Both the position numbers and the translations under genes were made by a program. The notes under the pieces are model-generated. The model ran no database searches. It saw only the letters and a program-made list of their open reading frames with translations, and was not told where the DNA came from. DNA of 64,000 bases from a virus. The DNA lies in IMG/VR virus record IMGVR_UViG_3300012209_000005, positions 1 to 64,000 of that record, one strand, 5' to 3'. Positions 21,088 through 35,723 of this stretch are shown piece after piece. Every line of letters starts with the position of its first letter. Position 1 is the stretch's first letter.

Positions 21088-21304
21088 CTCAACCCTCCTG
21101 GCCTCGCCTTCCCCATTGCGGCCAGGGGGCACGCGGTACCGTCGGCAAGGTACCGCCCGGGGGTGAGGTCCAGTATGCCACCGTCGTCTGGAGACCTCCC
21201 CCCAACAGGGAGGGTGCCCGGGGAGCGCACACAGTTACCCCTGGGCACCCTCCCGCCTATAGCGGAGCTTCGCTCCCCCGGGGCAGCCGCAGGCTGCGCC
21301 TCTG

Positions 21305-21375
21305 GCGGATGTAGTTCAACGGCAGAACCTCAGGCTTCCATCCTGATGACGCGGGTTCAATTCCCGTCGTCCGCT
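21305..21375 (+). tRNA. tRNA-Gly(TCC)
   Basis: tcagg-CTTCCAT-cctga, U73. Confidence 0.9.
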
Positions 21376-21376
21376 C

Positions 21377-21688
21377 GTGACAGATACCGAAAAGATCACC
21401 GGGAAGCTCAGCTACAAGCCCGGGTGGGCGTTCGCCTACGCGAAGGACCAGTTCTATGATGTGCTCATCATCAGCGGGCTGGTGCCCGACTCCCGGGACC
21501 CGTCCCGGATGCTGGCATTCGAGACGCGCAGGCCCGTTCCCGGGTACCTGCGGACCGCGAGCCAGGATGACTTCCTCGACTGGGTGGGGCAGCTGCTCCT
21601 CGAAGCCGAATACCATGAGCTGCGGGAGTACTTCCGCTACGACGGGGAGCTTGTAGACAATCCGCACAAGGTCAGAGGAGCAGTGTAG
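21377..21688 (+). CDS. hypothetical protein
   Basis: 103 aa, YKPGW...EYHELREYFRYDG...PH, GC3-rich. Confidence 0.7.
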   Translation: MTDTEKITGKLSYKPGWAFAYAKDQFYDVLIISGLVPDSRDPSRMLAFETRRPVPGYLRTASQDDFLDWVGQLLLEAEYHELREYFRYDGELVDNPHKVRGAV

Positions 21689-21848
21689 GTGCACACGGAA
21701 GGTCACCCCGCTTCCCGGGCGGCAGAAGGGGGCACATGATAATCTCATGGCCCTGCAGGTTCCTGATGTGCAGGCGCGGTCATGTGTGCACGCTCCGGGG
21801 ATGCCGGTGCGACTGCCACGCGAAGAGAAAAGAAGATCGCCGTATCAG

Positions 21849-21923
21849 CGGGATGTAGTTCAGCGTGGCTAGAACGCCTGCCTGGGGGGCAGGAGGCCGG
21901 GAGTTCGAGTCTCCCCGTCCCGA
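21849..21923 (+). tRNA. tRNA-Pro(GGG)
   Basis: cctgc-CTGGGGG-gcagg. Confidence 0.9.
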
Positions 21924-22037
21924 CGTGGTGAGAGAATGGATACGGATGAAGTTCAGGATGCCGCAGCCGGAGTGGCCCGACTACCTGTGCTGGGGTATCA
22001 TCATCGTCTTGCTGGTCATCATCCACATGGCGGCGAC

Positions 22038-22337
22038 GTGAAGCTGAAAGACAGCAAGATCTGCTGGAAGGGTCACGTGCCTCACCATGTAGCTGGATAC
22101 GAGGAGCCCCTGCGCACGCCCTGCCGGTTCGGGTACTGCATGATCCTGCGCTGCCCGAACTGCAAGCTGGAGTGGGGCGGCTATGGTCCGATCGACTGTC
22201 CGCATAAGAAGAACGAGAACGGCACCCTGCGGTCGTATAAATACCCCGACATGGACGAAAAGACCCATGTCGCAGTAAAGGAGAATAAAGACATGCGAAA
22301 GCCTAAGCGCTTTAAGCGCACCCGTAAGATCCGGTAG
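22038..22337 (+). CDS. hypothetical Cys/His-containing protein
   Basis: 99 aa, GTG start coupled to a small upstream ORF. Confidence 0.55.
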   Translation: MKLKDSKICWKGHVPHHVAGYEEPLRTPCRFGYCMILRCPNCKLEWGGYGPIDCPHKKNENGTLRSYKYPDMDEKTHVAVKENKDMRKPKRFKRTRKIR

Positions 22338-22403
22338 CTCAGTCTGGTTAGCAGCGTCCGACTCTTAATCGGCAGGTCGTGGGTTCGAATCCCACCCGGA
22401 TCA
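22328..22403 (+). tRNA. tRNA-Lys(CTT)
   Basis: loop CTCTTAA. Confidence 0.9.
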
Positions 22404-22432
22404 CGCACGAGCACACCGAAAGGAAGAGTAAC

Positions 22433-22675
22433 ATGGCATGGGGGCGCAAGTGCTGCAACAGCAACCGCGTCAAAGGCCAGCCTAACACGCGGTTCGCCTG
22501 CCAGTGCGATCTCACCAAGTGCAAGGGCTGCCGATGCAAGGGCTGCGGGCCTTGCAGGCAAAGGAGGCAATATGAAACCGGACTCGCCGAAACGCCAGGC
22601 TCCGGTAGCTTAATGGCAAGCGTCCGACTTTTAATCGGTTGTTATGCGGGTTCGACTCCCGTCCGGAGTACGTGA
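22433..22675 (+). CDS. Cys-rich small protein (reads through tRNA-Lys)
   Basis: MAWGRKCC..CQC..CKGCRCKGCGPC; AGGAAG RBS. Confidence 0.45.
   Translation: MAWGRKCCNSNRVKGQPNTRFACQCDLTKCKGCRCKGCGPCRQRRQYETGLAETPGSGSLMASVRLLIGCYAGSTPVRST
22599..22670 (+). tRNA. tRNA-Lys(TTT)
   Basis: loop CTTTTAA. Confidence 0.88.
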
Positions 22676-22716
22676 TCACTCCCCAGGGCATTATCGCTAA
22701 AACCAGGACGACGACA

Positions 22717-22821
22717 ATGGACAAGGTTGAGAAATGCTGCTGGGGCAGGACAAAATGCCACTGCTCTTCAGGATGCCCGTGCATCAAGACGCACGGCTGC
22801 ACGAAATGTGAGTGCACATGA
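22717..22821 (+). CDS. metallothionein-like Cys-rich peptide
   Basis: MDKVEKCCWGRTKCHCSSGCPCIKTHGCTKCECT (9 Cys/34 aa). Confidence 0.5.
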   Translation: MDKVEKCCWGRTKCHCSSGCPCIKTHGCTKCECT

Positions 22822-22996
22822 GGCACATGATGCGGATACACGGCCCCGGGAAAGACGAGGGCAAAAGCAAGCTGTGGAAGTGCCCGCACGGGTGCCTGGC
22901 GGTTCTCCCGGGTGCCACGACCGGGCGCAGGTATGCCGTGCGGCGGCCGAGGTGCGCATCCTGCCACCGTTCCATGACTGAAGTGAAGGACCGCTA

Positions 22997-23077
22997 GGGC
23001 GGCTGGCGGAATGGCAGACGCGCCGGCTTCAAGTCCCGGTGTCGGAAGACGTGAGGGTTCGAATCCCTCGTCGCCTA
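22997..23077 (+). tRNA. tRNA-Leu(CAA)
   Basis: loop TTCAAGT, long variable arm. Confidence 0.88.
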
Positions 23078-23090
23078 CGGTAGTAAATGA

Positions 23091-23164
23091 TCCCCTCTAG
23101 TTCATCTTGGCAGAACGCTCGGCTCTGGACCGGGAGGTACGAGGTTCGAATCCTCGGGGGGGAG
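23091..23164 (+). tRNA. tRNA-Gln(CTG)
   Basis: loop CTCTGGA, U1:A72. Confidence 0.9.
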
Positions 23165-23420
23165 CCGGGGTCGCGGCAATGATCCTGGAGCCGTGACCTC
23201 ACGGCTGCCGCGAACCCCGCTTGCAGGAGGAAGATATGAAAGAAGAAGGCAATGTCACATCACTCTCTCTCTGATGAGCACACGGTCAGGAAGACGGGCA
23301 GGAAAATCACGGTGACACGCTCCTGTTCGTGCGGGCTCTCCTGGATGGGCACGGGCCGGAGGCTGAGGAGCGCGGAAAGGAACCTGAAGTCGGCCTGGAA
23401 GAAGCATCTCGCATAGCCCT

Positions 23421-23495
23421 GCCTCCTTAGCTCATTCGGCGTAGAGCATGGCTCTCGTAAAGCCAAGGCGGCCGGTTCGATCCCGGCAGGAGGCT
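23421..23495 (+). tRNA. tRNA-Thr(CGT)
   Basis: tggct-CTCGTAA-agcca. Confidence 0.9.
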
Positions 23496-23496
23496 C

Positions 23497-23745
23497 GTGA
23501 ACATACACGACAGGAATCAGATGGTCCTCGGGATCGCCCGCGACCTGGGGGAGAAGTTCGGGCTGGAGCAGACGGTGCAGGACGCTTGCGGCGACCTGGT
23601 TTCCGGGGTTAGGATCAGCGAGGTGGTGATGTCTTTCAGCGAGGGACTGAGAGCCTCGGTGCCGATCTCCGGGAAGGTCGTAGATGATGGCGATATGCCG
23701 GAAGTGCCGGATGTACTCCGCGACGCGGGGGAAGTTGTGCGTTAG
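23497..23745 (+). CDS. hypothetical protein
   Basis: 82 aa ORF immediately after a tRNA. Confidence 0.5.
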   Translation: MNIHDRNQMVLGIARDLGEKFGLEQTVQDACGDLVSGVRISEVVMSFSEGLRASVPISGKVVDDGDMPEVPDVLRDAGEVVR

Positions 23746-23869
23746 ATGCTTCAAGGCTGGGGGGTAGTCACGCGCCGGTGCCCGCACTGTGACCAGCTGC
23801 AGTACCCCTGCCCGGTTTCCGAGTGCTGCTCGGGGGGCTGGAAGCACTTCGGGACCGGGCACCACGCAT

Positions 23870-23954
23870 GCGCTCGTGGCGGAACGGCATACGCGCCAGC
23901 TTGAGGTGCTGGTGAGTCGCAAGACTCGTGGGGGTTCAAATCCCCCCGTGCGCA
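23870..23954 (+). tRNA. tRNA-Leu(GAG)
   Basis: ccagc-TTGAGGT-gctgg, long variable arm. Confidence 0.9.
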
Positions 23955-24033
23955 CTGGTCCGGGGTCGTCAACCGGATACGGGCAGCTGATCGTCTTACC
24001 CGGGCGAGTGCCACTGCCCGTCCCCGGGCCTTT

Positions 24034-24107
24034 GCCAGCTTAGCTCAGCTAGGTAGAGCACCCGCTTTGTAAGCGGCAGGTCATCGGTTCGATCCCGTTA
24101 GCTGGCT
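24034..24107 (+). tRNA. tRNA-Thr(TGT)
   Basis: loop TTTGTAA. Confidence 0.9.
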
Positions 24108-24240
24108 CGAAGGGAACAGAAATGAGAAGATGCAAATACTGCAAGACCTTGCGGTTTAAGTCACAGCTGAAGCGCGGCGCAATGTTCGGCAACCGGATCT
24201 GCAAGAACAGGGAAGCCTGCGATAGGCGCAAGGCGGCTAG

Positions 24241-24313
24241 TGGGCGGTAGCTCAACCGGCAGAGCGTCCGGCTTTGGTCCGGAAGGTTCGGGGTCCGAAT
24301 CCCTGGCGCCCAG
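24241..24313 (+). tRNA. tRNA-Gln(TTG)
   Basis: tccgg-CTTTGGT-ccgga; T-loop TCCGAAT variant. Confidence 0.82.
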
Positions 24314-24328
24314 CAACAGGAGAATGTC

Positions 24329-24595
24329 ATGGAGATCATCGAGCTTGTCCCCGGGGCGCACTTCCCGGGCGCGGTGGAGCTGCCCAACAAGAACGTGCGG
24401 TGGGTGAACGGGACCAACAAGTCGTCCCCTGGAGGCAACTCCGTCCCGAAGAGGAAAGGCCGGATGGTCATCCCGGGCAAGATGCACGCCGATATCCTCA
24501 AGCAGTCGCAGGAGCAGACGAGGCGGCATGCTAAGATCCTGGTGATCTCCGGGGGCAAGAGGCGCTGGGTGCTGGCCAGCGAATGGAAGGACTGA
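24329..24595 (+). CDS. hypothetical protein
   Basis: 88 aa, AGGAG RBS. Confidence 0.6.
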   Translation: MEIIELVPGAHFPGAVELPNKNVRWVNGTNKSSPGGNSVPKRKGRMVIPGKMHADILKQSQEQTRRHAKILVISGGKRRWVLASEWKD

Positions 24596-24598
24596 CAG

Positions 24599-24805
24599 GT
24601 GGGCAGGCAGGAAGAAGAGCACAGCAAGCGGGAGCCGGTACCCGTCAGCTGGCGGGATAAGCACAGCCGCAGCCGCCATCGGACGGCGGTCCCGCTGAAG
24701 TACAGGGACCACCCGCGGCGGAGCTTCTCCACGCGGGCAGCCGGCTGGGTACTTGCGTTCATCGTGCTCTTCTGGTTCTTCCGTTTCGTGCTCCACGCAG
24801 GGTAA
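24599..24805 (+). CDS. small membrane protein
   Basis: C-terminal TM helix. Confidence 0.5.
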   Translation: MGRQEEEHSKREPVPVSWRDKHSRSRHRTAVPLKYRDHPRRSFSTRAAGWVLAFIVLFWFFRFVLHAG

Positions 24806-24811
24806 GTGCCA

Positions 24812-24884
24812 GCCGGGGTAGCTCAGTGGCGAGAGCGGCTGCATGGTAAGCAGCAGGCCCGGGGTTCGATCCCCCGTCCTGGCT
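24812..24884 (+). tRNA. tRNA-Thr(GGT)
   Basis: gctgc-ATGGTAA-gcagc. Confidence 0.9.
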
Positions 24885-24935
24885 CGATGTGGTAATATTC
24901 TCACATCAGGCGACGTGAGGATATCCTCACACCGC

Positions 24936-25009
24936 GCGGTTGAAACTCAGCCTGGTTGAGTACTTGCTTGCCAAGCAAGAGGTCGCGGGTTCGAATCCCG
25001 TCAGCCGCT
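24936..25009 (+). tRNA. tRNA-Gly(GCC)
   Basis: cttgc-TTGCCAA-gcaag. Confidence 0.88.
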
Positions 25010-25198
25010 CGCAGGAGGACCAGATAGGGATGATACTGGCTAGACACTGGCATCTCGGTCCTCCTGCAGGAACCGCAGAGGTCAAGGCAGACTGGAACGG
25101 ATAGCCCCAGCCTGGGAATTCGGCGGTTTCCTGGTGGGCTGGGGACCGGAGGCGCCCCCCTGATTCACCCTTGATGCCCCCGGTCCCCGCTTGTTGTT

Positions 25199-25269
25199 GC
25201 GAGCGTAATTCAGTGGCAGAATGCCAGCTTCCCAAGCTGGCCACGCGGGTTCGATCCCCGTCGCTCGCT
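25199..25269 (+). tRNA. tRNA-Gly(CCC)
   Basis: ccagc-TTCCCAA-gctgg. Confidence 0.9.
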
Positions 25270-25438
25270 CAAGGGATGAGGCTGCCATCCCCTAACCGCG
25301 AGAATCTTAGCCTACTGGGCAAGATGGCTCCGGGTATGCAGCAAGGCGATGCAGGTCCCGGGAGAAGATGCGCCCCCGGTCAAACGCTCCCCGCACCCCC
25401 CCTGAGAGGATAGTGTATGAGCTGCCTGCATCACCTGT

Positions 25439-25523
25439 GGGCGGATGGTGGAATGGCAGACACGCTGGCCTCAGGAGTCAGTGACCCGGAAGGGTCGTGG
25501 GGGTTCAAGTCCCCCTTCGCCTA
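25439..25523 (+). tRNA. tRNA-Leu(CAG)
   Basis: loop CTCAGGA, long variable arm. Confidence 0.9.
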
Positions 25524-25537
25524 CGGAAGGGAACGCG

Positions 25538-25945
25538 GTGGTGGACGTTAAGCAGGTCATCGTCATCCGCAAGGACCTGGGGATGCGCCGGGGCAAGGAG
25601 ATCGCCCAGGGCTCGCACGCTTCCATCGCGTGGCTGACGAACAGGCTGACGATGCTCGGGTACGTCAACCCGGGGGAGCGGGGCAAGTACGCCAGCTGCC
25701 ACCTGACCGAGGCGGAGTGGCAGTGGACGGACGGCAACTTCCGTAAGATATGCTGTGTCGTGAACAGCGAGGACGAGCTGCTCGAACTGGCAGCGAAGGC
25801 GAAGGCCGCGGGCCTTGTCTGCGAGGTCATCGAGGACACCGGGCTCACCGAGTTCGGGGGCGTGCCCACGCTCACCGCGCTGGCGATCGGGCCCGACTAT
25901 GACGAGAAGATCGACCCGGTGACCGGGAACCTGAAGCTTTACTAG
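25538..25945 (+). CDS. pth2: peptidyl-tRNA hydrolase, Pth2 type
   Basis: KQVIVIRKDLGM..GK..AQ..HA, W.....KI, I.D.G.TE....T.TALAIGP, ID.VTG.LKLY. Confidence 0.92.
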   Translation: MVDVKQVIVIRKDLGMRRGKEIAQGSHASIAWLTNRLTMLGYVNPGERGKYASCHLTEAEWQWTDGNFRKICCVVNSEDELLELAAKAKAAGLVCEVIEDTGLTEFGGVPTLTALAIGPDYDEKIDPVTGNLKLY

Positions 25946-25951
25946 GAGACG

Positions 25952-26146
25952 ATGATGCACTACCTGCACATGCTGCGCATGGACCCCGCCTGGTACCTGC
26001 AGAAGCTCTGGTGGGCGGGAGTCCTGCTCGGGCTCATCCTCATCCTGGTCACCGCCGGGAAAAACAGGCGGCGCGCCAGGACGGCGAAAGCCAAGGCTGA
26101 GAAGGCCTCCCCCCCCGAGTCCGGCAGCCCCCGTCTGCGGGGCTAG
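25952..26146 (+). CDS. small membrane protein
   Basis: one TM helix, AGGAG RBS. Confidence 0.55.
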   Translation: MMHYLHMLRMDPAWYLQKLWWAGVLLGLILILVTAGKNRRRARTAKAKAEKASPPESGSPRLRG

Positions 26147-26151
26147 CATAC

Positions 26152-26200
26152 GGAGAGTTCGCCTAGTCTGGTCTATGGCGCGTTACTTGTAATGTAATGT
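26152..26200 (+). pseudogene. truncated tRNA-Ser-like 5' fragment
   Basis: ggagagttcgcctagtc identical to the start of tRNA-Ser(GGA) at 28422; no T-arm or acceptor 3' strand follows. Confidence 0.7.
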
Positions 26201-26218
26201 GCTATGCTGATATTACCT

Positions 26219-26301
26219 GGAGGATGAACCAGACAGGCGTGCTGGGCTCCGTTGCTAGCGGATGCGCGGGAAACCGTGGCTTTCGAATAGTCCGTCCTCC
26301 G
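26219..26301 (+). tRNA. tRNA-Ser(GCT), atypical
   Basis: ggaggat/gtcctcc acceptor, tccg-TTGCTAG-cgga, variable arm, weak T-stem. Confidence 0.7.
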
Positions 26302-26302
26302 C

Positions 26303-26785
26303 ATGGTGCGATCTATCGAGTTGACTCAGGGTCGCGAGGCACTAGTTGATGACGAGGATTACGACCAGGTTTCGCAATTCAAATGGTATGCGGGAAAAAT
26401 CCGCAATACCTATTACGCAATGCGGACTGTCGATCACGCTACTCAGTACATGCATACCCTCATTACCGGATATGTGAAAACTGACCATAAAAACGGCAAC
26501 GGGCTGGACAATCGCAAAGAAAACCTTCGTGAGACAACTGATGTACAGAATCAGCACAACTCTCAACGTTCCCGCAGTAACACCAGCGGATATAAAGGTG
26601 TCAGCTGGGAGGGGCGCAGGAACAGGTGGCTTGTTCTGATAAGAGCAGATGGCAAACAGCGCTTCATAGGACGATACCCTGATGTCATCGAAGCTGCTCA
26701 CGCTTACGACAATGTGGCTCGTCATTATTTCGGGGAGTTCGCGCGAGTTAACTTTCCCGAAGAGGCGTCGGAGGAAATGACATGA
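26303..26785 (+). CDS. HNH-AP2 homing endonuclease
   Basis: I.LTQG..ALVDDEDY, YMH.LI, TDH.NGNGLDNRKENLR, NTSGYKGVSW, AA.AYD..A...FGEFA..NF. Confidence 0.93.
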   Translation: MVRSIELTQGREALVDDEDYDQVSQFKWYAGKIRNTYYAMRTVDHATQYMHTLITGYVKTDHKNGNGLDNRKENLRETTDVQNQHNSQRSRSNTSGYKGVSWEGRRNRWLVLIRADGKQRFIGRYPDVIEAAHAYDNVARHYFGEFARVNFPEEASEEMT

Positions 26786-27258
26786 AACTGGCGGAAGCGC
26801 TCGCCGAGCGCGCCGACATCGACAAGAAGATCGCCCAATTGCGGGAACGCGCCAAGGCCTCCGCCCGGTACCTGGAAGGCGAGGAGCCCGCCGAGTCCGC
26901 GCTCGCGCTCATCGGCGACACGCGCCAGCTGCTCACCCGCAGGATGGACCTGGTGCGCAGGATCAACCTGACGAACTCCGAAACCCGCATGGTCCGGAGC
27001 AGCGGCACCGTCACGATGACCGAGGCCCTGGCGATGCGCGAGTTCATCCTCGCCGAGCGCATGCTGCTCACCGACGTGTGCAACGAGGCGTCCCCCGGGA
27101 AAGACCCGTACGGGATACGCCGACGCAAGACCGAGCTGCCCGAGAAGACGGACCTGCCGGTATCGCACCTGCGCGCCGAGGCTGACAACCTGGGCAGGGT
27201 TTTCCGGGAGCTTGACTCGGACATCCAGCAGGCGAACTGGAACACGGAGCTGATCTGA
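26782..27258 (+). CDS. DIP1984-family coiled-coil protein
   Basis: MKLAEAL.ERAD.......L..R........EGEEPAE....I..TN....LD..IQQANWNTEL. Confidence 0.85.
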   Translation: MKLAEALAERADIDKKIAQLRERAKASARYLEGEEPAESALALIGDTRQLLTRRMDLVRRINLTNSETRMVRSSGTVTMTEALAMREFILAERMLLTDVCNEASPGKDPYGIRRRKTELPEKTDLPVSHLRAEADNLGRVFRELDSDIQQANWNTELI

Positions 27259-27573
27259 TGAAGGCAGCGAAGAAAGTCCTCGGCACGGAAGACAAGCTTG
27301 AGCGCAGGATCAAGGTCGCGATCGCGGTCCTGAACGCCACTCTCATCGCGAGAGCCCTGAGGAAAGCTTTCAAGAAGAAGAAGGGCACGCGAGGGTAGCG
27401 GGAGTCGGTAACCGGGTCAGGGTGAGCACGGCCTTGCTGCTCCGTTGCAGTCCTCTGGAGGCGTCCCGGGCGGCGTCACGGTCACAGGGCAGCCCAGCAC
27501 ATCAGTACACGGTACTGAAGCAGCCGTTCACCATTCACTACCGCGTGCTAACTGACCGGGTGAGGGATGATTC

Positions 27574-27942
27574 ATGGGTAAGGGGAATCCCGCTAATAGC
27601 AGGAAAAGGGAACTGGCGTTCACGGTCCCGAAAGAGAAGTTCGTCATCAAGACGTTCACCGCCGGGGGTCCCGGCGGGCAGCACCAGAACCACTCGAATA
27701 CCGCGGTGCGGATCACCCACCCGGACTCCGGGGCCTCCGCCGAATGCCGGATGTTCCGCAGCCAGCACCAGAATAAGATGACGGCTTTCCGGAACCTGGT
27801 GAACTCCGGGAAGTTCCGGACGTGGGTGAACCGGCAGCTGCTGGGAAACCCGCTGCCCCCGGAGGAGCAGGTGAAGCGGGATATGCACCCGGACAACCTG
27901 CTGGTCATGACGATGACGGACGGGAAGTGGAAGATTGATTAA
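27574..27942 (+). CDS. stand-alone RF-1 (GGQ) domain peptidyl-tRNA hydrolase, ArfB/PrfH-like
   Basis: F.AGGPGGQH.N....AVRITH..SG....C...RSQ.QNK..AF..L; lacks the codon-recognition domain. Confidence 0.9.
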   Translation: MGKGNPANSRKRELAFTVPKEKFVIKTFTAGGPGGQHQNHSNTAVRITHPDSGASAECRMFRSQHQNKMTAFRNLVNSGKFRTWVNRQLLGNPLPPEEQVKRDMHPDNLLVMTMTDGKWKID

Positions 27943-28273
27943 GTTCATCATCGTCGGCGCGCTCCTCCTGGCGTTCTTCTGGCTGATCTCGCGCCCGGGG
28001 AGGCGGCGGCGCGCCTCAGCGGACCACCAGCGCCGGAAGGCGCACAACTCGTGGCACATCAGGTACGCCGGCTTCGAGACCTCGCAGGACGAGCACGGCG
28101 GGCGCAGGGTGCACGCGAAGCAGCGGGCCGGCCGGGATGCCTGCTCCGACCAGTGCCCGCATTGCGCCGCCGGGGGAGGCTACCAGGCGAGCCTGCGGGT
28201 CTTCGATGACCGCGGTGTCCGGGGGCGCAGGGACCGGAGGGCGATGAGGGAGGACCGTGATGGCAGGGAATAA
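27935..28273 (+). CDS. hypothetical protein with N-terminal TM
   Basis: 112 aa. Confidence 0.55.
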   Translation: MIKFIIVGALLLAFFWLISRPGRRRRASADHQRRKAHNSWHIRYAGFETSQDEHGGRRVHAKQRAGRDACSDQCPHCAAGGGYQASLRVFDDRGVRGRRDRRAMREDRDGRE

Positions 28274-28421
28274 GAACGCCAGGGCCCGCAAGCACTTCAA
28301 AGGCGAGGAACGCGCCGAGAGGGCACGCCGCAAGCGGGAGCTGAAACGCCAGCGCAGGAAAGACAGGAAGCAGGTTCCTCCTCCCGGGGAACAGGAGGAG
28401 CAGGGGCAGTAGCCCTTTTAC

Positions 28422-28508
28422 GGAGAGTTCGCCTAGTCAGGCCGATGGCGCTGCCTTGGAAAGGCAGTAAGGGTAACACCTTCACGAGTTCGAATCTCGT
28501 ACTCTCCT
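28422..28508 (+). tRNA. tRNA-Ser(GGA)
   Basis: ctgcc-TTGGAAA-ggcag, variable arm. Confidence 0.9.
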
Positions 28509-28509
28509 C

Positions 28510-28592
28510 GGAGCGTAAACCGGACAGGCGTGCCGGGCTCGCCTCGAAAGCGATGCAGCCTGCGGGCAGCGGTTCAAGTCCGCTGCGCTCCT
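28510..28592 (+). tRNA. tRNA-Ser(CGA), atypical D-arm
   Basis: loop CTCGAAA; agcgg-ttcaagt-ccgct. Confidence 0.8.
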
Positions 28593-28780
28593 CCGTGACC
28601 AGGAAGCCGGTGCTCCAGTGATGTGGTTCTTGATCCTCACCGTCGTCATTATCACGGTCCCGTACCTGATCCTGTTCTTGGCCCACCCGGGAAGCGAAGA
28701 CGAAACCGTGACCGCGCGTAAGGGGAGGAGACGGTGATGCGCCAGGAGGACCCTGCCGCTGGTCGCGTTCGGTACCCCGG

Positions 28781-28864
28781 GGAAGATGCGGCGACGGCTC
28801 GCCAGCCGGCTTTGAACCCCGGCGCAGGTCTCCGGGCCTGGAAGTTCGACACTTCCGTCTTCCG
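28781..28864 (+). tRNA. tRNA-Ser(TGA), atypical D-arm
   Basis: ggaagat/gtcttcc, loop TTTGAAC, variable arm, ggaag-ttcgaca-cttcc. Confidence 0.75.
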
Positions 28865-29213
28865 CTGGAAGCGCAGCTTCGCTGCCCATGCGATCAGGAA
28901 GGAGAACTATGCCTGACGACTGGACGTGCGCGTACTGCCAGGAGCGTCTTTTCCTGGGCGTAAGCGGGGAGTGGGTCGGGCAGCGTTCCCTAAGGCGCTG
29001 CAGGAAAAGCCCTGACCTGGCGCATCACCTTGAGAAGAAGGGGAACCAGTGAGCGGAAGTGACGATGCCTGACGCGACATGCACCAGGACGTACTGCGGG
29101 TGCACGTGCCCGCCATGCCGGCACGCACGACGGAACAGGGACGACGCCCATGCCGACCATTGCGGCCGGCATGCCAGGGACTGCCACTGGATCCGGTGCG
29201 CAGGGTGAACCAT

Positions 29214-29287
29214 GGGTGCGTAGCTCAGTCGGTTAGAGCATCTTCCTGATAAGGAGAAGGCCGGAGGTTCAATTCCTCTCGCACCTA
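29214..29287 (+). tRNA. tRNA-Ile(GAT)
   Basis: loop CTGATAA. Confidence 0.9.
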
Positions 29288-29309
29288 CGTAAATGAAAGG
29301 TCCAGTCAG

Positions 29310-29513
29310 GTGAACACGGAAGAGCGCACCCCCGAAGGGCGGATTGCCGCGCTTGAGCAGCTGGTGAGCACGCTGCGGCAGGACAACGTGCGGCAGTGGC
29401 AGGCGATCCTGCGGCTGGCGAGGCTGGTGGCGAAGATCACCGGCGTCCCCGAGCAGGACATCGCGGCGGAAGAGGCGCTCATGGATGAGCAGCTCCGTCG
29501 TGCGGGCTCGTAG
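29310..29513 (+). CDS. hypothetical coiled-coil protein
   Basis: 67 aa. Confidence 0.55.
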   Translation: MNTEERTPEGRIAALEQLVSTLRQDNVRQWQAILRLARLVAKITGVPEQDIAAEEALMDEQLRRAGS

Positions 29514-29577
29514 CTCAACAGGTCAGAGCAGCTGTCTTATGAGCAGAGGGTTCCAGGTTCAAATCCTGGCGAGCCTA
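29504..29577 (+). tRNA. tRNA-Ile(TAT)
   Basis: loop CTTATGA, A73. Confidence 0.8.
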
Positions 29578-29923
29578 CGTGAAAGAAACCAGGCACACGC
29601 ATTACACCAGGTACTGGGCGACCATGACCGCCTGCAGGAAGCGGGTCGCGGATGTGGTATACTCCAGTCATTTCACGACGATGGTGACCTGCCCCGCATG
29701 CAAGGCGGCGATGCGAGATGACAAGCCGGTGGCCCGTCGGGGATGACGGTGACAACACGGGCATGGAGTGGATGTGCGCCTGCAGCTGCGGGCGGTGCGG
29801 TCCGCTAGACGAGCATGACTGCGGCACTGCAGCCTGCGATCGCGGGCACTACGAAAGATGTTCCGTCGAGAGAATTCCCCGAAGTTCCTGACAGGCAGCT
29901 GAGCTGGGCTTACCGTCAGATGC

Positions 29924-30445
29924 ATGACATTCACCACCAGCGGAATGCTTTTCAGCAAGGGCCGGCATGTCAGGCAGCGCTCACGAGTTACTGCAGTAGT
30001 CGTGACTGTCCTCACCCTGGTTGCTGCAGCGGTCTGGTCTTTCGTCGGAGCCCAGCAGGCCAGCGCCGCGGTCAGCTGGGGCCCGTCGGGGAGCCTGGGC
30101 AACCAGGCCCTGTCCTGGGCCGAGCGCAATGCCCTCGGGCACTGGTACCTGTGGGGCGGCACCGGGCCGTCCTATGACTGCAGCGGGCTCGTGATGGAAG
30201 CCTACGGGCGCGCCACCGGGGTGTGGCTGCCGCACAGCACGTACTCGATGCTCGCCAGCGGGCACCTGAGGCGCACGTACTACCCGCAGCGCGGGGACCT
30301 TGCCTTCTACGGGTCCGGGCATGTAGAGTTCGTGACAGTCCTTTACCACACCACATTCGGCGCGCACCACACCGGCACCCGTATCGGGTGGATCGGGTAC
30401 GGCGGGTCCTGGGCGCCCACCGCCTACTACCGGGTCGTCAGGTAG
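29924..30445 (+). CDS. secreted NlpC/P60 endopeptidase
   Basis: signal peptide (..QQASA/A), YLWGGTGP.YDCSGLV, GDLAFY..GHVE; start uncertain. Confidence 0.9.
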   Translation: MTFTTSGMLFSKGRHVRQRSRVTAVVVTVLTLVAAAVWSFVGAQQASAAVSWGPSGSLGNQALSWAERNALGHWYLWGGTGPSYDCSGLVMEAYGRATGVWLPHSTYSMLASGHLRRTYYPQRGDLAFYGSGHVEFVTVLYHTTFGAHHTGTRIGWIGYGGSWAPTAYYRVVR

Positions 30446-30471
30446 TGTGCCAGTCCTGTAAGGAAGAGGGT

Positions 30472-30660
30472 ATGACAGCAGCCGTCATCCGCGAGAAGGG
30501 CGTCAGCGCCAAGGGCGTCCTCGTGCAAAGCGATCCTGAGGGGAACCTCACCGTCCAGCTGGGGCTGAACGATGACGGCAGGACGAAGTTCACCGAGGAG
30601 GAGGCCCTCGCCCTGTACGAGAACCTCGGGAACATGATTGAATGGAAGCCGGAAAGCTAG
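30472..30660 (+). CDS. hypothetical protein
   Basis: 62 aa, GAGG RBS. Confidence 0.55.
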   Translation: MTAAVIREKGVSAKGVLVQSDPEGNLTVQLGLNDDGRTKFTEEEALALYENLGNMIEWKPES

Positions 30661-30667
30661 ACTTCCC

Positions 30668-30741
30668 GCGCCGTTAGCTCAGCAGGACAGAGCAGCGCCC
30701 TTCTATGGCGACGGTCAGGGGTTCGAATCCCTTACGGCGTG
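30668..30741 (+). tRNA. tRNA-Arg(TCT)
   Basis: loop CTTCTAT. Confidence 0.88.
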
Positions 30742-30794
30742 CTATCATCACTGTAAGTGCTCAGCCCAGACACTTAACGCTGTAGCACTATCAT

Positions 30795-30869
30795 GCCCCT
30801 GCAGAGCAGTCAGGAGTGTTCGCCACCCTCTCAAGGTGGAAACCGCCGGTTCAAATCCGGTCAGGGGTA
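30795..30869 (+). tRNA. tRNA-Glu(CTC)
   Basis: ccacc-CTCTCAA-ggtgg. Confidence 0.88.
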
Positions 30870-30986
30870 CGGTTGCGCTGAACGGCGTGCAGCAAGCTTC
30901 TCAGCCCTGGCGATCCGTTCCGTAGCGGTCACGTGCACAGGACCGTTCCCCTCACCGGGGGAGGGGACTACCATCCCCCCGGTCAG

Positions 30987-31061
30987 GCTCCGGTAGGCAA
31001 AGCGTGTAAAGCCGCCTGCCCTTCAAGCAGGAGTTTCCGGGTTCGAGTCCCGGGCGGAGCA
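30987..31061 (+). tRNA. tRNA-Glu(TTC)
   Basis: cctgc-CCTTCAA-gcagg (C33). Confidence 0.82.
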
Positions 31062-31062
31062 C

Positions 31063-31245
31063 ATGAGTAAATACCCGACCGAGCAAGCGCTGATCAACTT
31101 GGTCAACGACCTGGCGGACGACCTGAAGAAGATAGAGCGGGGCAACCCTGCTCACATCCCGGCGACGGCGAGACTCATACAGGCACGCAAAGCGCTGGCG
31201 TTGCACCGCAAGGGCATCAAGGCAGGCGAAGACAAGGCGAGGTAG
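31063..31245 (+). CDS. hypothetical protein
   Basis: 60 aa between tRNAs. Confidence 0.5.
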   Translation: MSKYPTEQALINLVNDLADDLKKIERGNPAHIPATARLIQARKALALHRKGIKAGEDKAR

Positions 31246-31310
31246 CTCAGCTGGCAAGAGCGCTCCGCTCATAACGGAGAGGTTCGGGGGTTCGAGCCCC
31301 CCCCTCGCTA
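31236..31310 (+). tRNA. tRNA-Met(CAT), elongator type
   Basis: ctccg-CTCATAA-cggag. Confidence 0.85.
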
Positions 31311-31492
31311 CGGTCACCCACCAGGGAGAACCCCCGTGTCCAAGAACCCTGAGCAGAAGGAAGCGGCCAGGCTGGCGAAGCTGCGGCGGCGCTGGGAGAA
31401 GGAGAACGGGCGCGGCAGCAAGAAGATGCGCACCATGTACAAGCATGCCAGCGGGCACAACGACGGACTCCCCAGGACGCCGACCAGCTGAC

Positions 31493-31521
31493 TTGACATC
31501 GGTACCCGCAGGGCATAAGCT
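31493..31521 (+). promoter_or_regulatory. HrdB/sigma70-type promoter
   Basis: TTGACA-17nt-TAAGCT directly upstream of tRNA-fMet. Confidence 0.7.
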
Positions 31522-31533
31522 TTAAACACACGA

Positions 31534-31608
31534 CGCGGAGTGGCGCAGTTCGGTAGCGCGCTGGGCTCATAACCCAGAGGTTCGCAGGTTCAAATCCTGC
31601 CTCCGCAA
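31534..31608 (+). tRNA. initiator tRNA-fMet(CAT)
   Basis: C1:A72 mismatch and three G-C pairs in the anticodon stem (ctggg/cccag). Confidence 0.9.
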
Positions 31609-31657
31609 CGAGACCCGCTAATGCGGTCCTGGGCATGACCGGAAACTGCCCTTTCAT

Positions 31658-31731
31658 TCCCCTGTAGCTCAACTAGGCAGAGCACTTGGCTGTTAACCAG
31701 GGAGTTATAGGTTCGAATCCTATCGGGGGAG
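31658..31731 (+). tRNA. tRNA-Asn(GTT)
   Basis: loop CTGTTAA. Confidence 0.9.
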
Positions 31732-31808
31732 CGAGGAGAGTTTACAATGTTAACGAGAAGACAATACGTCGGCTTCGTCGTGGCGAAACCTGGCGGTACA
31801 CATTACAT

Positions 31809-31883
31809 GGTCATGTAGAGCAGCTTGGAGTGCTCGCCACCCTGTCAAGGTGGAGGTCGCGGGTTCAAGTCCCGTCTTGACCG
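31809..31883 (+). tRNA. tRNA-Asp(GTC)
   Basis: ccacc-CTGTCAA-ggtgg. Confidence 0.9.
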
Positions 31884-31897
31884 CGTACACTGAAAGT

Positions 31898-32098
31898 ATG
31901 TACGTCTTCGACGACGAAGATGACGAGAAGAAGGATGCTGAAGTGATGCCTGATTACTGGGAGCAGATGGGCTACGTGCCCTGCCCGTTCTACGACCGGG
32001 TGACCTGGGAGGAGCTGGCCGGGGAGAGTCTCACCCATGACACCGGCCATGTCGACCACGTTGATCATGTCCTGCATTCGACTGCAGCGACATCATGA
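31898..32098 (+). CDS. small acidic/His-rich protein
   Basis: 66 aa. Confidence 0.45.
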   Translation: MYVFDDEDDEKKDAEVMPDYWEQMGYVPCPFYDRVTWEELAGESLTHDTGHVDHVDHVLHSTAATS

Positions 32099-32237
32099 TT
32101 GCAGCTTTCGCGATCGCCGGCATCGCCCTGGGCATGGCGACGGTCGTCGCAACCCTCCGGTTCGGGTTTCCCGGGCTGCTGGTCATGCTCGCGGTGATAG
32201 CGGCGGTAACAGCTGCTATCCTTAGCAGTATCCACTA

Positions 32238-32311
32238 GGACGCTTAGCTCAGCCGGGGAGAGCGCCTCCCTGACACGGAGGAGGCCGGGGGTTCAAACCC
32301 CTCAGCGTCTA
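32238..32311 (+). tRNA. tRNA-Val(GAC)
   Basis: cctcc-CTGACAC-ggagg. Confidence 0.9.
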
Positions 32312-32356
32312 CGACGAGCGTTAAACCACTGCGGAGACAGCGGAACGCTTGCTCAA

Positions 32357-32438
32357 GGGGATGGATAAGGGTTCGACTAACCTGTAAAACCGCATGTCGG
32401 AACAGGTCAGGACAGGCGTTCGATTCGCCTCATCTCCA
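32357..32438 (+). ncRNA. minimal tmRNA: tRNA-like domain only, no tag reading frame
   Basis: GGGGATG..GGTTCGAC 5' end, helix-2 acctgt/acaggt, GGAC, T-arm aggcg-ttcgatt-cgcct, CATCTCCA; G3:U70. Confidence 0.75.
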
Positions 32439-32516
32439 CTAGTTGTGACGCGAAGCGTCATGACGCTTTAGCCCGGGGTACTGAAAGGCGCTCACCCACC
32501 TGATGTCCCCGGTACC

Positions 32517-32717
32517 ATGTACGGGGAGCGTGTGCGCAGGGAACGCAGGATCGACCGCAAGGTTGGCTACGACGAAGCAGCGGTCAAGCGCTTCTTCGAC
32601 GCGCTTGACGAGAAGGACAGGAAGAAGCACGCATCACCACGCCGGGTCGCCTGGCGGCGCAAGCTGCGCCAGGAGGCATTCCCGGTCCCGGAGTGGCTGA
32701 AAGACAAGCCCTCGTAG
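32517..32717 (+). CDS. hypothetical basic protein
   Basis: 66 aa. Confidence 0.5.
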   Translation: MYGERVRRERRIDRKVGYDEAAVKRFFDALDEKDRKKHASPRRVAWRRKLRQEAFPVPEWLKDKPS

Positions 32718-32781
32718 CTCAAAGGACTAGAGCATCGCGCTACGGACGCGGAGGCTGCAGGTTCGAATCCTGTCGAGGGTG
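32708..32781 (+). tRNA. tRNA-Arg(ACG)
   Basis: loop CTACGGA. Confidence 0.9.
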
Positions 32782-32785
32782 CGCT

Positions 32786-33040
32786 ATGAAAACTGATATC
32801 ATCATCGCCTTGTTCCTGCTCCTGCTGATCATCACCGTCTGCTCTCTTGTCATCAGCAAGCGGGAGAGCGATACGCGCAAGATGATGAAGGAGATGCGCA
32901 GGCAGCACGAGCGCAAGGTGGACCGCAAGGTGATACTGGGCAGGGGCAAGCGCTTCGACTGCCCCGCCTGCGGGTCGACGGAGCCGTGCGGCAGATGCCG
33001 GTTATGGTGCTACCATGAAGCTGATAAGCAAAGGTCTTGA
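32786..33040 (+). CDS. membrane-anchored Zn-finger protein
   Basis: N-terminal TM, CPAC....CGRC. Confidence 0.55.
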   Translation: MKTDIIIALFLLLLIITVCSLVISKRESDTRKMMKEMRRQHERKVDRKVILGRGKRFDCPACGSTEPCGRCRLWCYHEADKQRS

Positions 33041-33046
33041 TATGAC

Positions 33047-33517
33047 ATGTGGTACATCGCCCTAGCCGGCATCTACGTGACGCTCTACCTGCGGAACGAC
33101 CGGGTGATCACGCCGGTTCACAGGTGGCTGCACGAGCCCGTCACGGGCAGTCACGCGGCGAATATGCACGGGGTCTGGCTTGGCGGCATCGTGCTTACCG
33201 CCATCGTTATCACCGCAATCCTTACCCGTAAGACAGGCGAGGCGGTCCCCGGGGTGCCGAGGGACACCAGCTGGGTGATAGGACTGGCGCTCGCGTTCAC
33301 CGGGTTCCTGTGGTACCTGGTCCAGGTCGGCAGGAAGCCGGCTGCCGTCATCACGCGCCCGCAGCCCACGGTGACGGTGACCGCCGGCAGTAGCCACCCG
33401 GTAACCAGCACGGTCATGCACGCGGCGGGCGTCAGCTGGGAAGTGGTCGCGATCTTCGGGGTCATCGGGGTGATCGTGCTCGGGGTGCTCTACTTCATCG
33501 TCCGGTACGTGCTGTGA
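33047..33517 (+). CDS. multi-pass membrane protein
   Basis: four hydrophobic segments. Confidence 0.65.
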   Translation: MWYIALAGIYVTLYLRNDRVITPVHRWLHEPVTGSHAANMHGVWLGGIVLTAIVITAILTRKTGEAVPGVPRDTSWVIGLALAFTGFLWYLVQVGRKPAAVITRPQPTVTVTAGSSHPVTSTVMHAAGVSWEVVAIFGVIGVIVLGVLYFIVRYVL

Positions 33518-33617
33518 AAACCCGGTGCATATACCCGGGGTGCCGGCGTAGGATAAGAGTTGCGTGGAGTAACCTCGCGGTCCTGTACTGCAGGAAGCAC
33601 CGCAAGGTTGTCAGCAA

Positions 33618-33690
33618 GGCTGCTTAGCTCAGCGGAACGAGCGTCCCGTTCACACCGGGAGGGTCGAAGGTTCAACTCCTTCAGCGGCCA
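33618..33690 (+). tRNA. tRNA-Val(CAC)
   Basis: tcccg-TTCACAC-cggga. Confidence 0.9.
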
Positions 33691-33710
33691 CGCAGTGGTA
33701 TCATGCACAT

Positions 33711-33786
33711 GGTGATGGTAGCTCAGTTAGGTTAGAGCGCTGGCTTGTGGTGCCGGATGTCGCGGGTTCGAATCCCGTCCTTCACC
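33711..33786 (+). tRNA. tRNA-His(GTG)
   Basis: loop TTGTGGT; encoded G-1 opposite C73. Confidence 0.9.
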
Positions 33787-33947
33787 CGAAAGGGAGACAG
33801 ATGCCCAGGAAGTGCTTCATCTGCAGGAAGCGCAAGCCCGTCACAGGCGGGCACATATGCGCGGTGTGCTACGCCAACCTGAGGATGCCCAGCCCAAAGG
33901 AGGCGGCATGAGCAAGCGATATACGAGGCTGCCCAGCAGGTAACCTC

Positions 33948-34027
33948 GCCAGGGTCGCATAGTGGCTATCGCAGCGGTCTGTAAAACCGTGGCTTCGGCA
34001 TCGGGGGTTCGAGTCCCTCTCCTGGCA
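33948..34027 (+). tRNA. tRNA-Tyr(GTA)
   Basis: loop CTGTAAA, variable arm. Confidence 0.88.
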
Positions 34028-34098
34028 CTAAGGTTCGTGTTACTACGAGGTGGATTACAGTGCCATCTGGAAAGTCCGGACAGGAAAATCATGGAAAC

Positions 34099-34662
34099 AT
34101 GTCAGGCAAAACCCGAATCCATGTGAAAACCCGGAATGAGATAAAACGTGAGCGTCGTCTTGTGGATACCCGTAACCATAAATGCTGGGGGTGGATGCCC
34201 GGGGGTATCGTTGTCGCGATGCTCTTTCCTCTTCACGGAGCGAACATAGGGACTCTCCTGAGAACCTGCGAGGCTGCGGGAGCATGCCTCGCGGTACCGC
34301 ACTACCCCTGGGTTCCGCAAGCGCTCAGCAAGGGCTACACGATCTCCCAGCGGGCACCTGTCCACTGGGCTAAGCCGACCTCGATGAGATGGCTGGAGCG
34401 AGAGCGTCAGCGGACAGGCGATGAGTATGTTAACATTATCGGCGTCGAGCTTGCCGATGAAGCGATCCGCCTCCCGAACCTGCCCGTGCGGGGGGAGCGC
34501 AGAACGATCATCGTCCTCGGGCATGAGCAAACAGGGATACCTCCGGAGGCCCTGGAAATGCTCGACATGACAGTTGAAATCCCGATGGTCGGCTCCGGAA
34601 GCACGCTAAACGTAGCGGTCGCAGGATCGCTTGTTCTTTACAAGCTAGCAGGGCTAAGTTGA
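34099..34662 (+). CDS. SpoU/TrmH-family (SPOUT) RNA 2'-O-methyltransferase
   Basis: NIGTLLRTCEA.G, IVLGHEQTGI, VEIPM.G....LNVAVAGS.VLY. Confidence 0.9.
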   Translation: MSGKTRIHVKTRNEIKRERRLVDTRNHKCWGWMPGGIVVAMLFPLHGANIGTLLRTCEAAGACLAVPHYPWVPQALSKGYTISQRAPVHWAKPTSMRWLERERQRTGDEYVNIIGVELADEAIRLPNLPVRGERRTIIVLGHEQTGIPPEALEMLDMTVEIPMVGSGSTLNVAVAGSLVLYKLAGLS

Positions 34663-35289
34663 AAACATTGCATGTTCCCCGGGACCTGAGTCACGTGGTG
34701 ATGTACGGCATGATCATGTGCGTGCTCTGCCAGCACGCCTGCTGCAAGGGCATCCTGTGCCCCTGCTGCAGGGAGAAGCACCCCTTGTACCGGGGAAGCG
34801 CAGCGTCACCCCCCCTGGAGGCGGTGTGACGACCACCCGGATCGCCACGGTCACCTGCGATCCTTGCGGGAGGCGGGAGCTGTCCCTGGGCGAGCACTGC
34901 GGGGGGCCCTTGCGGTGGGCCCAGGTCACCTGGGAGGAGCCCCCCGAGGACGGAAAGCACTACCGCCAGTACAAGGAGATGGACCTGTGCCCGGATCACC
35001 TGAACGAGTTCCTGAAGTGGGTAGCAGCGGAGCAGGAGAAGCAAACCTTTTCCGCAACCTGACCCCGGCGGAGATCACGGAGGTCATCAGCAAGCAGCGT
35101 CGTGAGGGGGTGAGCGTCTCGGTGGCCTCCTTCGAGGACTCCCGTAAGCACCGGGTTACCGCGATCCACTGGCGCCCGGGGGACCCGAACGCGCTGGCGG
35201 AGATGATCATCCGCAACGTCGGGGACGAGGAGGTCTCGCTCATCCTCGACGGGAATGCCTACGTGGTCAGGAAGGTATCCTGACCACAT

Positions 35290-35363
35290 GCGCCCGTAGC
35301 TCAGCGGAACAGAGCACTGCCCTCCGGAGGCAGGGGCCGGGAGTTCGAATCTCCCCGGGCGTG
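35290..35363 (+). tRNA. tRNA-Arg(CCG)
   Basis: ctgcc-CTCCGGA-ggcag. Confidence 0.9.
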
Positions 35364-35368
35364 CGCAT

Positions 35369-35440
35369 GGCGGTATGGCCGAGCGGCCCAGGCACGCGAC
35401 TGCAAATCGCGTCACGCGAGTTCGACTCTCGCTTCCGCCT
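35369..35440 (+). tRNA. tRNA-Cys(GCA)
   Basis: cgcga-CTGCAAA-tcgcg, U73. Confidence 0.9.
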
Positions 35441-35457
35441 CTCACGGAATACCATTT

Positions 35458-35533
35458 CGGCCTGTAGCTAAACAGGATAAAGCACCCGCCTCCTAAGCGG
35501 GAGATCATGCCCGTTCGAATCGGGTCAGGCCGG
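35458..35533 (+). tRNA. tRNA-Arg(CCT)
   Basis: cccgc-CTCCTAA-gcggg. Confidence 0.88.
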
Positions 35534-35723
35534 CGCACCAGTGAAACGAAAGAAGGTGAGACACGTGCACATCGGACATTACGTGAAGGACATCCTGGAG
35601 ACGGTCGCGCTCGTCGGCGCGCTCGTCGGCTTCGTCATCGGGCTGGTCACCGCCCGCATCGCCGGCAAGATCCGCCGGCGCAAGTCCCGCTGACGGGCTG
35701 GCTTTCCGGCTATCATCTGAGAA

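Follow-up and report, generated by a model that had tools for sequence, protein, structure and literature searches.

The genome of an uncultured phage carries a gene for a transfer-messenger RNA (tmRNA) cut down to its tRNA-like domain (TLD). The stretch analyzed here (the window) covers positions 1 to 64,000 of a 115,415-bp IMG/VR virus record, IMGVR_UViG_3300012209_000005, with a CheckV completeness of 93% and a GC content of ~65%. Within it, the TLD-only gene occupies 82 nt of the plus strand, from G1 to the discriminator A73 (32357..32438), as a preliminary description of the window, made from the letters alone, had proposed. This identity is confirmed at the level of sequence, because the Rfam tmRNA model (RF00023, 57.3 bits), an independent family model termed R1 (67 bits) and covariation agree. 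Trans-translation is the main bacterial ribosome-rescue path and a drug target; to our knowledge, phage effects on it have barely been studied. The single phage example of such an RNA, from mycobacteriophage DS6A, has been a curiosity since 2014. It now joins a recurrent, selected phage gene found in many unrelated lineages, a form that is almost absent from cellular genomes, keeps its alanine identity elements, and occurs in carriers where SmpB was not found.

All parts of a TLD are present on the plus strand. The acceptor stem pairs the 5′ strand GGGGATG (32357..32363) with the 3′ strand CATCTCC (32431..32437) in 7/7 pairs, including G3:U70 with U70 at 32435, and is followed by the discriminator A at 32438. 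Downstream of the 5′ strand lies a D-loop analogue without a stem, GATAAGGGTTC (32364..32374), which aligns with the unpaired ‘AucuGGaUUC’ of the Rfam tmRNA consensus. In the Rfam alignment, the GAC of the helix-2 junction (32375..32377) has its partner in the GGA at 32410–32412, part of the GGAC junction (32410..32413) ahead of the T-arm. Helix 2a joins the 5′ strand TAACCTGT (32378..32385) to the 3′ strand ACAGGTCA (32402..32409) in 7/8 pairs, with one A.C, around the core ACCTGT/ACAGGT, and the T-arm, AGGCG/TTCGATT/CGCCT (32414..32430), forms 5/5 pairs. Compared column by column in the Rfam alignment, the D-loop analogue fits GGnUUCGAC and the T-loop fits GUUCGAnUC. The stem, D-loop, helix, GGAC, T-arm and G3:U70 listed in the preliminary description were thus every one found at 32357–32438.

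What is missing is the mRNA-like domain. The element has no resume codon, tag frame or stop codon and none of the pseudoknots PK1–PK4; only 16 nt separate the helix-2 strands, exactly the loop length first reported. This apical element (32386..32401, plus strand) consists of AAAA, a 3-bp stem CCG/CGG closing the loop CATGT, and then an A, and it occupies the place of ~290 nt of pseudoknots and tag frame. Within it, GCATGTCG had been likened to tmRNA helix 2, and the likeness holds, as the Rfam helix-2 consensus has a conserved CAUGCCG, with conserved ...CAUGCCGAGG on the 5′ strand pairing with ...AAGCAUGUAG on the 3′ strand. Thermodynamic folding returns the acceptor stem, helix 2a, the T-arm and, at the apex, a small hairpin of CCG/CGG around CAUGU. 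Folding z-scores of this unremarkable size (−1.8 here) are usual for tRNA-sized RNAs.

The RF00023 match covers 32357–32441 at 57.3 bits against a gathering cut-off of 47 (E 7.6e-20, three runs). Its alignment spans model positions 1–374, of which 290 are deleted, and on a 221-nt sub-stretch alone the same alignment scores 35.1 bits. R1, a covariance model built from the equal-length copies of nine other phages with the window sequence left out, finds the element at 67 bits (E 6e-14) as its sole match in the window. A strict architectural pattern matches the window once and gives 0 matches in 100 shuffles. Rfam and ARAGORN had been proposed as checks at the outset: the former places the element above its cut-off, and the latter makes no tmRNA call there.

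Other classes of RNA fit the element less well. A tRNA-Ala was considered and rejected: there is no D stem and no anticodon arm, ARAGORN makes no tRNA call, and in the clan competition the tmRNA model comes out ahead. The element has the standard gene order and closes helix 2 within one molecule, which sets it apart from two-piece tmRNAs (RF04321 and RF01849–51); the two-piece/permuted model RF04321, with a cut-off of 47, reaches only 17.1 and 20.9 bits, confined to the T-arm and flank. No organellar tmRNA family is listed at E <= 1, though lower-scoring overlapping clan members are suppressed in that output. A permissive cmscan of the whole 115-kb record found no message or pseudoknot part of any tmRNA model.

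The short form recurs across uncultured phages. The IMG/VR pattern, which allowed two variable gaps and at most 45 nt between TTCGAC and GGAC, scanned to at least 119 contigs with the short form; family counts throughout are among the matches listed. A sub-scan with GGGGATG acceptor stems returned 16 contigs, and because 11 of these were already in the first list, we estimate that the strict pattern would give ~170 IMG/VR contigs. This figure is a lower bound for the class, as DS6A-type variants escape the pattern. The matches listed contain 88 distinct full elements of 64–89 nt, mostly 78–80 nt, and the 134 loci compared fall into 71 sequence clades. Applied to prokaryotes, with one genome for each of 185,579 species (596 Gb), the same pattern matches in only 9 places, mostly on contigs of metagenome-assembled genomes (MAGs). 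The class is strongly phage-enriched. The search for further phages with a short form and a covarying helix, which the preliminary description had suggested, thus succeeded on both counts.

We then asked whether the fold is maintained across the family. R1 retrieves 98 elements, the window copy (67 bits) and DS6A (61.4 bits) included. Among these 98 members, standard pairs fill 97.0% of cells, compared with 67.0% in shuffled alignments and at most 52.3% with partners slid; 18 of the 23 pairs have changes on both sides, and the covariation score is 0.706 against 0.141 when shuffled. Helix 2a shows 5–6 pair types at most positions and is 94% paired in the family, while an alignment-free parse finds it 93.4% canonical, compared with 43.6% when 3′ arms are swapped among sequences. 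The T-arm is 100% paired, with compensatory changes in 4/5 pairs, and acceptor positions 5 and 6 covary. The apical motif AAnCCGCAYG(n)CGG is common to DS6A, to a relative of the window phage (G033, described below) and to most family members, and its third stem pair covaries. The junction C-G pair occurs in 98/98 members, in a motif that the search pattern demanded.

The search pattern fixed GGGG, GGnTTCGAC, GGAC and GTTCGAnTC, and the invariance of these is uninformative. It left free U70, A73, the T-stem partners and helix 2. At the free positions, 98/98 members keep G3:U70 and all have A as the discriminator, while pairs 5 and 6 of the acceptor stem are free to change. Because G3:U70 and A73 are invariant where neighboring pairs drift, their conservation points to selection for alanylation. 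The aligned family shows that the fold and the alanine identity elements are under selection. Given the compensatory changes, neither a single deletion event nor a gap in the assembly can account for the short form.

A phage TLD-only tmRNA has been in print since 2014, and the preliminary description overrated the novelty of the form. Hudson, Lau & Williams reported the TLD-only tmRNA of DS6A (tmRNA Website ID 11587; PMC4131195), and the 2025 tmRNA database paper gives DS6A as the phage example of the form lacking a coding sequence (CDS), beside jakobid mitochondria and two plastids (PMC11915505). We located the DS6A element at 28478–28560 of JN698994.1. Its RF00023 score of 43.2 bits lies under the gathering cut-off, and annotation based on Rfam would pass over it; GenBank and RefSeq do not annotate it, and there is no RNA feature of any kind in the first 50 kb of the record. 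Like the window copy, it is a phage-encoded RNA of ~80 nt with a G3:U70 acceptor stem, a stemless D-loop, helix 2a and a T-arm, an A-rich internal loop followed by CCGCAYGCGG (inner motif AAAACCGCAYG.CGG), a CTA trailer in place of CCA, and no tag frame. It departs at GGTCGAC and GGCAC, and its helices share no sequence with those of the window copy. The settings also differ: in DS6A, a temperate phage of the M. tuberculosis complex with a genome of 60 kb, the element stands alone, whereas the window element sits in a 41-tRNA array of a 115-kb phage without an integrase.

Organellar, synthetic and full-length forms bracket the phage RNA. The CDS-less tmRNAs of jakobid mitochondria and Mallomonadaceae plastids (Jacob et al. 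2004; PMC11915505) also consist of a TLD without a tag frame, and, if they function, they do so with an SmpB from another locus; such an organellar RNA is the cell's only tmRNA, whereas the phage form coexists, and probably competes, with a full-length host tmRNA. According to PMC3929946, a 63-nt synthetic TLD closed by a tetraloop was crystallized with SmpB (PDB 2CZJ). Synthetic TLDs likewise have the tmRNA 5′ and 3′ ends linked through a short loop that caps helix 2a, and they bind SmpB and are active on ribosomes. They were made in the laboratory by truncating bacterial tmRNA, whereas the natural RNA has in addition an internal loop and a conserved hairpin of 3 bp. Among phages, tmRNAs of full length occur in the mycobacteriophage Bxz1 group, in Bacillus phage G and, in permuted form, in marine myophages (Melnitz, S-SSM7), often near tRNA genes (PMC4131195, PMC9004378). 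These keep the tag frame and pseudoknots and can do complete trans-translation, whereas the window RNA cannot template a tag.

We next examined the carriers. In 48 carrier records of 24–194 kb, 20 of which are at least 90% complete, SmpB was found in 0/48 and a full-length tmRNA in 0/48, while every mini copy in them passes the Rfam cut-off (51.6–81.1 bits). Across the 119 stretches listed, ARAGORN labels a tmRNA in only 3, and 93 are without a tRNA gene. No neighboring protein family spans more than 8 of the 71 clades (134 loci listed). In one marine group, the mini-tmRNA gene is flanked by the prohead protease and major capsid genes on the same strand; in another group, it adjoins a RecE-like exonuclease. 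Two MAGs hold a full-length host tmRNA together with the phage short form. A cultured bacterium, Cellulosimicrobium cellulans MP1 (NZ_JAFGYF010000003.1), has a mini-tmRNA at 567–646 of the examined stretch, followed by five tRNA genes and phage-type glycosyltransferases in a prophage-like region.

Similarity searches return little. The metagenome scan gave 0 matches to window-like elements, and neither megablast nor blastn, with the region or with the element, found near relatives in cultured phages. Searches with blastn from the DS6A element and two other family members returned DS6A itself or nothing. The neighboring 156-aa open reading frame (ORF) and a DIP1984-family protein led to no relatives, and a release-factor-domain protein of the array led to one half-complete contig without any tmRNA. 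The sole short blastn match falls on a tmRNA of cyanophage S-SSM7 that is full and permuted, of the cyanobacterial type, and not on a mini form. In that genome (Synechococcus phage S-SSM7, GU071098.1, ~20984–21286), the full two-piece tmRNA (RF01851, 109 bits) lies under a ‘hypothetical protein’ CDS, SSSM7_025.

Annotation practice bears on how such genes are seen. Large phage surveys called tmRNAs with ARAGORN (PMC7162821, PMC9004378), and the class has therefore gone largely unseen. ARAGORN-based phage surveys miss it, and Rfam-based ones label it simply ‘tmRNA’. We found no paper describing the breadth of TLD-only phage tmRNAs, and the family-level picture, with abundance in uncultured phages, invariant alanine identity and no SmpB, appears to be new.

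In the window, the mini-tmRNA sits inside an array of 41 co-oriented tRNA genes called by ARAGORN (18620..35534, plus strand). Its upstream neighbor, 44 nt away, is tRNA-Val(GAC) (32238..32312), and its downstream neighbor is tRNA-Arg(ACG) (32708..32782), both on the same strand and supported by ARAGORN and Rfam. The element ends in the trailer CTA (32439..32441, plus strand), and a CCA end is not encoded. All 37 neighboring phage tRNA genes checked likewise lack an encoded CCA and have C first after the discriminator. Neither a sigma-70-like promoter nor a plus-strand terminator adjoins the element. The shared CCA-less ‘C’ trailer and the missing promoter and terminator suggest that the RNA is co-transcribed and processed with the tRNAs.

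The minus strand of the record carries structural genes, a tape-measure gene among them. No close cultured relative of the record was found, and the 115-kb record encodes no tyrosine integrase and no SmpB. Its class II ribonucleotide reductase (RNR) is nearest to those of Actinomycetia phage DSL-LC01 (50%) and mycobacteriophages Gaia and Nebkiss (49%), and for this reason the host is likely actinobacterial. The RNR itself (B12-type, 5030–8002 of the window, minus strand) is 990 aa long, and its residues ~377–689 are missing from the G033 and actinophage orthologues. This insert holds a LAGLIDADG homing-endonuclease domain (PF14528, residues 547–630) and is therefore probably an intein.

The only clear relative is G033, a 181-kb, 98% complete genome whose RNR is 63–66% identical. 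Its 34-tRNA array has the same block order, ...Met-Met-Asn-Asp-Arg(acg)-Val-His-Tyr..., where the window array reads ...Met-Met-Asn-Asp-Val(gac)-[mini-tmRNA]-Arg(acg)-Val-His-Tyr.... G033 has a short tmRNA of its own (61.5 bits), ~5 kb outside the array and on the opposite strand. Its differences from the window copy fall in acceptor pairs 5 and 6, in helix 2a and in two pairs of the T-stem, and pairing is kept. The preliminary description had allowed that relatives might carry a full-length ssrA, leaving the window copy a one-off deletion or assembly gap; G033 has the short form and no full-length ssrA.

Two genes in the array encode proteins that could act on peptidyl-tRNA. One is a Pth2-type peptidyl-tRNA hydrolase (25445..25945, plus strand; PF01981 102 bits, TIGR00283 99.9 bits). 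Homologues of this archaeal/eukaryotic-type enzyme occur in mycobacteriophages WXIN, Myrna, Sandalphon and Baka and in several jumbo phages. The other is a 122-aa, GGQ-only release-factor-domain protein (27574..27942, plus strand; PF00472 61.8 bits, GGQ motif present) that lacks codon-recognition domains as well as a basic tail like that of ArfB; in NCBIfam it matches best to the GGQ portions of prfB, prfA and prfH. Counterparts are a 136-aa protein in G033 and a 47%-identical one on the viral contig L152. A general module of Pth2, GGQ protein and mini-tmRNA was considered and rejected. The RF-1 domain occurs in only 1 of the 48 other carrier records listed, that one being G033, and no neighbor family exceeds 8 of the 71 clades; the two genes are local context only.

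What might such an RNA do? We consider it probable, on the strength of conserved sequence features, that it is a functional mini-tmRNA: charged with alanine, it would capture the host's SmpB and compete with host tmRNA, leaving stalled chains without the ssrA tag. Its expression, its charging, its binding of SmpB and its effect on tagging are all predictions from sequence. The gene would be transcribed together with the surrounding tRNA array, excised by host tRNA-processing enzymes and given its CCA by the host enzyme. Host alanyl-tRNA synthetase (AlaRS) would then charge it with alanine via G3:U70 and A73. Dependence on host SmpB is suggested by the lack of SmpB in the record and in the 48 carriers; with SmpB recruited, and with EF-Tu, the RNA would compete against host tmRNA for ribosomes stalled on broken messages. 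Lacking a resume codon and a tag frame, it could not add the ssrA degradation tag. At a minimum, SmpB would be diverted from host tmRNA. More probably, the RNA would also enter the A site and take over the nascent chain, which might be released by a GGQ-type hydrolase or Pth, both encoded by this phage and, for most carriers, presumably drawn from the host, or might receive further alanines. The two functions first put forward, SmpB sequestration and the acceptance of chains without a tag, are in our judgment the two that rank highest here.

Published observations on related molecules are consistent with interference. According to PMC4131195, citing Mao et al. 2009, a molecule similar to the DS6A form strongly inhibits tmRNA whether chargeable or not, perhaps by titrating SmpB; according to PMC11915505, citing the same work, the DS6A form inhibits endogenous tmRNA in E. 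coli. Several points weigh against the proposed competition with host tmRNA. Inhibition is reported even without charging, as relayed by these citing papers, and any benefit that a phage may draw from blocked tagging is hypothetical. Neither a short nor a full-length tmRNA is present in DSL-LC01, Gaia, WXIN or Myrna, the cultured actinophages nearest by RNR or Pth2; because these four lack it, the gene is accessory and dispensable for such phages. Part of the apparent conservation, namely the invariance of the D-loop and GGAC in the family set, is a product of the search pattern, and helix 2a of the window copy contains the A.C mismatch.

A different use of the same chemistry is productive rescue without a tag, or alanine tailing. 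Here the charged RNA and host SmpB would free stalled ribosomes, one or several alanines being added, and a GGQ factor or Pth would then release the chain, the purpose being faster ribosome recycling or a minimal poly-Ala degron. The invariance of G3:U70 and A73 in 98/98 listed copies, which implies that charging matters, suits this reading, as do the Pth2 and GGQ-only proteins encoded in the same array and the place of the gene between the prohead protease and capsid genes in the marine group. There are precedents as well: a TLD fragment with SmpB supports template-free polyalanine synthesis in vitro (Shimizu & Ueda 2006, as relayed in PMC3929946), natural tmRNAs with Ala-Ala-only tags exist, and CDS-less mitochondrial tmRNAs co-occur with SmpB (PMC11915505). 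However, with an RF-1/GGQ domain in only 1/48 other carriers listed, no dedicated release partner accompanies the RNA, and host ArfB-type factors rescue the same ribosomes without tmRNA, so that the gain from an added step is not obvious. The only in vivo data cited in print concern inhibition, not rescue. We regard productive rescue as possible, though rather unlikely. A pure sponge, an RNA that does no more than bind up SmpB, and perhaps AlaRS or EF-Tu, without ever working on the ribosome, strikes us as improbable. For such a role the SmpB-binding elbow would suffice, yet the alanine pair and the discriminator persist in 98/98 copies and across 71 clades while flanking pairs drift, and the full 7-bp acceptor and T-arm geometry needed by EF-Tu is also kept. 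Since inhibition is said, by the citing papers, to occur without charging, a sponge needs no G3:U70, and on-ribosome action fits the universally kept charging determinants better than titration does.

Two further explanations concern where the RNA comes from or what it belongs to. In one, it is half of a split tmRNA whose tag-coding half is a separate phage gene that joins in trans. The apical CAYG within CCGCAYGCGG, conserved and often palindromic beyond what a cap needs, could be a docking site. Yet a true two-piece helix 2 forms between two RNAs, and here it is closed within one molecule with no free strand; RF04321 scores of only 17–21 bits against a cut-off of 47 fall far short. The permissive cmscan of the 115 kb gave no message or pseudoknot match to RF00023 or the permuted models beyond the TLD, though a very divergent half could escape it, and 20 near-complete carriers listed have no second tmRNA-type match except tRNA-Ala-like ones. 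A split gene is accordingly highly improbable. We give next to no credence to a decaying relic, an aberrant tRNA-Ala or an attP remnant of host ssrA without a function of its own. Phages that integrate into ssrA do carry its 3′ part, and close cultured relatives lack the gene. But both gene ends are present here and pair with each other, all four helices have compensatory changes, the record has no tyrosine integrase, ARAGORN calls no tRNA, the tmRNA model outscores the tRNA model, and the short form is kept in G033 at an RNR identity of only 63–66%. As to origin, deletion between two GCAUG copies at the helix-2 tip is speculation. The Rfam consensus, in which CAUGC pairs with GCAUG at that tip, is in line with it; counting against it, the tmRNAs of actinobacterial hosts read CGUGC/GCACG at this place, and the 13-bp helix in between has been lost as well.

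A broader proposal, offered tentatively and as an unlikely one, is that TLD-only tmRNAs are a widespread and largely overlooked phage device, present in at least 71 clades of marine to soil phages, with the ribosome as its site of action. The alanine-charged RNA, carried by host SmpB, would seize nascent chains on stalled ribosomes and extend them by one or more template-free alanines. If true, such chains would bear either no degron or a minimal poly-Ala degron in place of the host-encoded ssrA tag, and phages would thereby rewire bacterial ribosome quality control in a way that recalls the alanine tailing by RqcH. It can now be tested for what reason phages interfere with the rescue of ribosomes, and if an isolated TLD is active on ribosomes in vivo. 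DS6A, the prophage-like region of Cellulosimicrobium cellulans MP1 and simple expression constructs are usable systems.

The tRNA array around the mini-tmRNA holds other features. A highly significant match to the manA RNA motif (RF01745) at 19058–19285 (plus strand), between tRNA-Cys and tRNA-Ala, covers the full-length model at 47.4 bits (E 4.7e-9), below the cut-off of 55.2. The ARAGORN tRNA at 20341–20416 (plus strand) has an 8-nt anticodon loop with a four-base anticodon, ‘tagg’, is given no type by that program, and scores 38.9 bits with the Rfam tRNA model. Embedded among the tRNA genes are also a DIP1984-family protein at 26782–27258 (plus strand; DUF6847, 121 bits) and a SpoU/TrmH-like 2′-O-methyltransferase at 34060–34662 (plus strand; PF00588, 68 bits).

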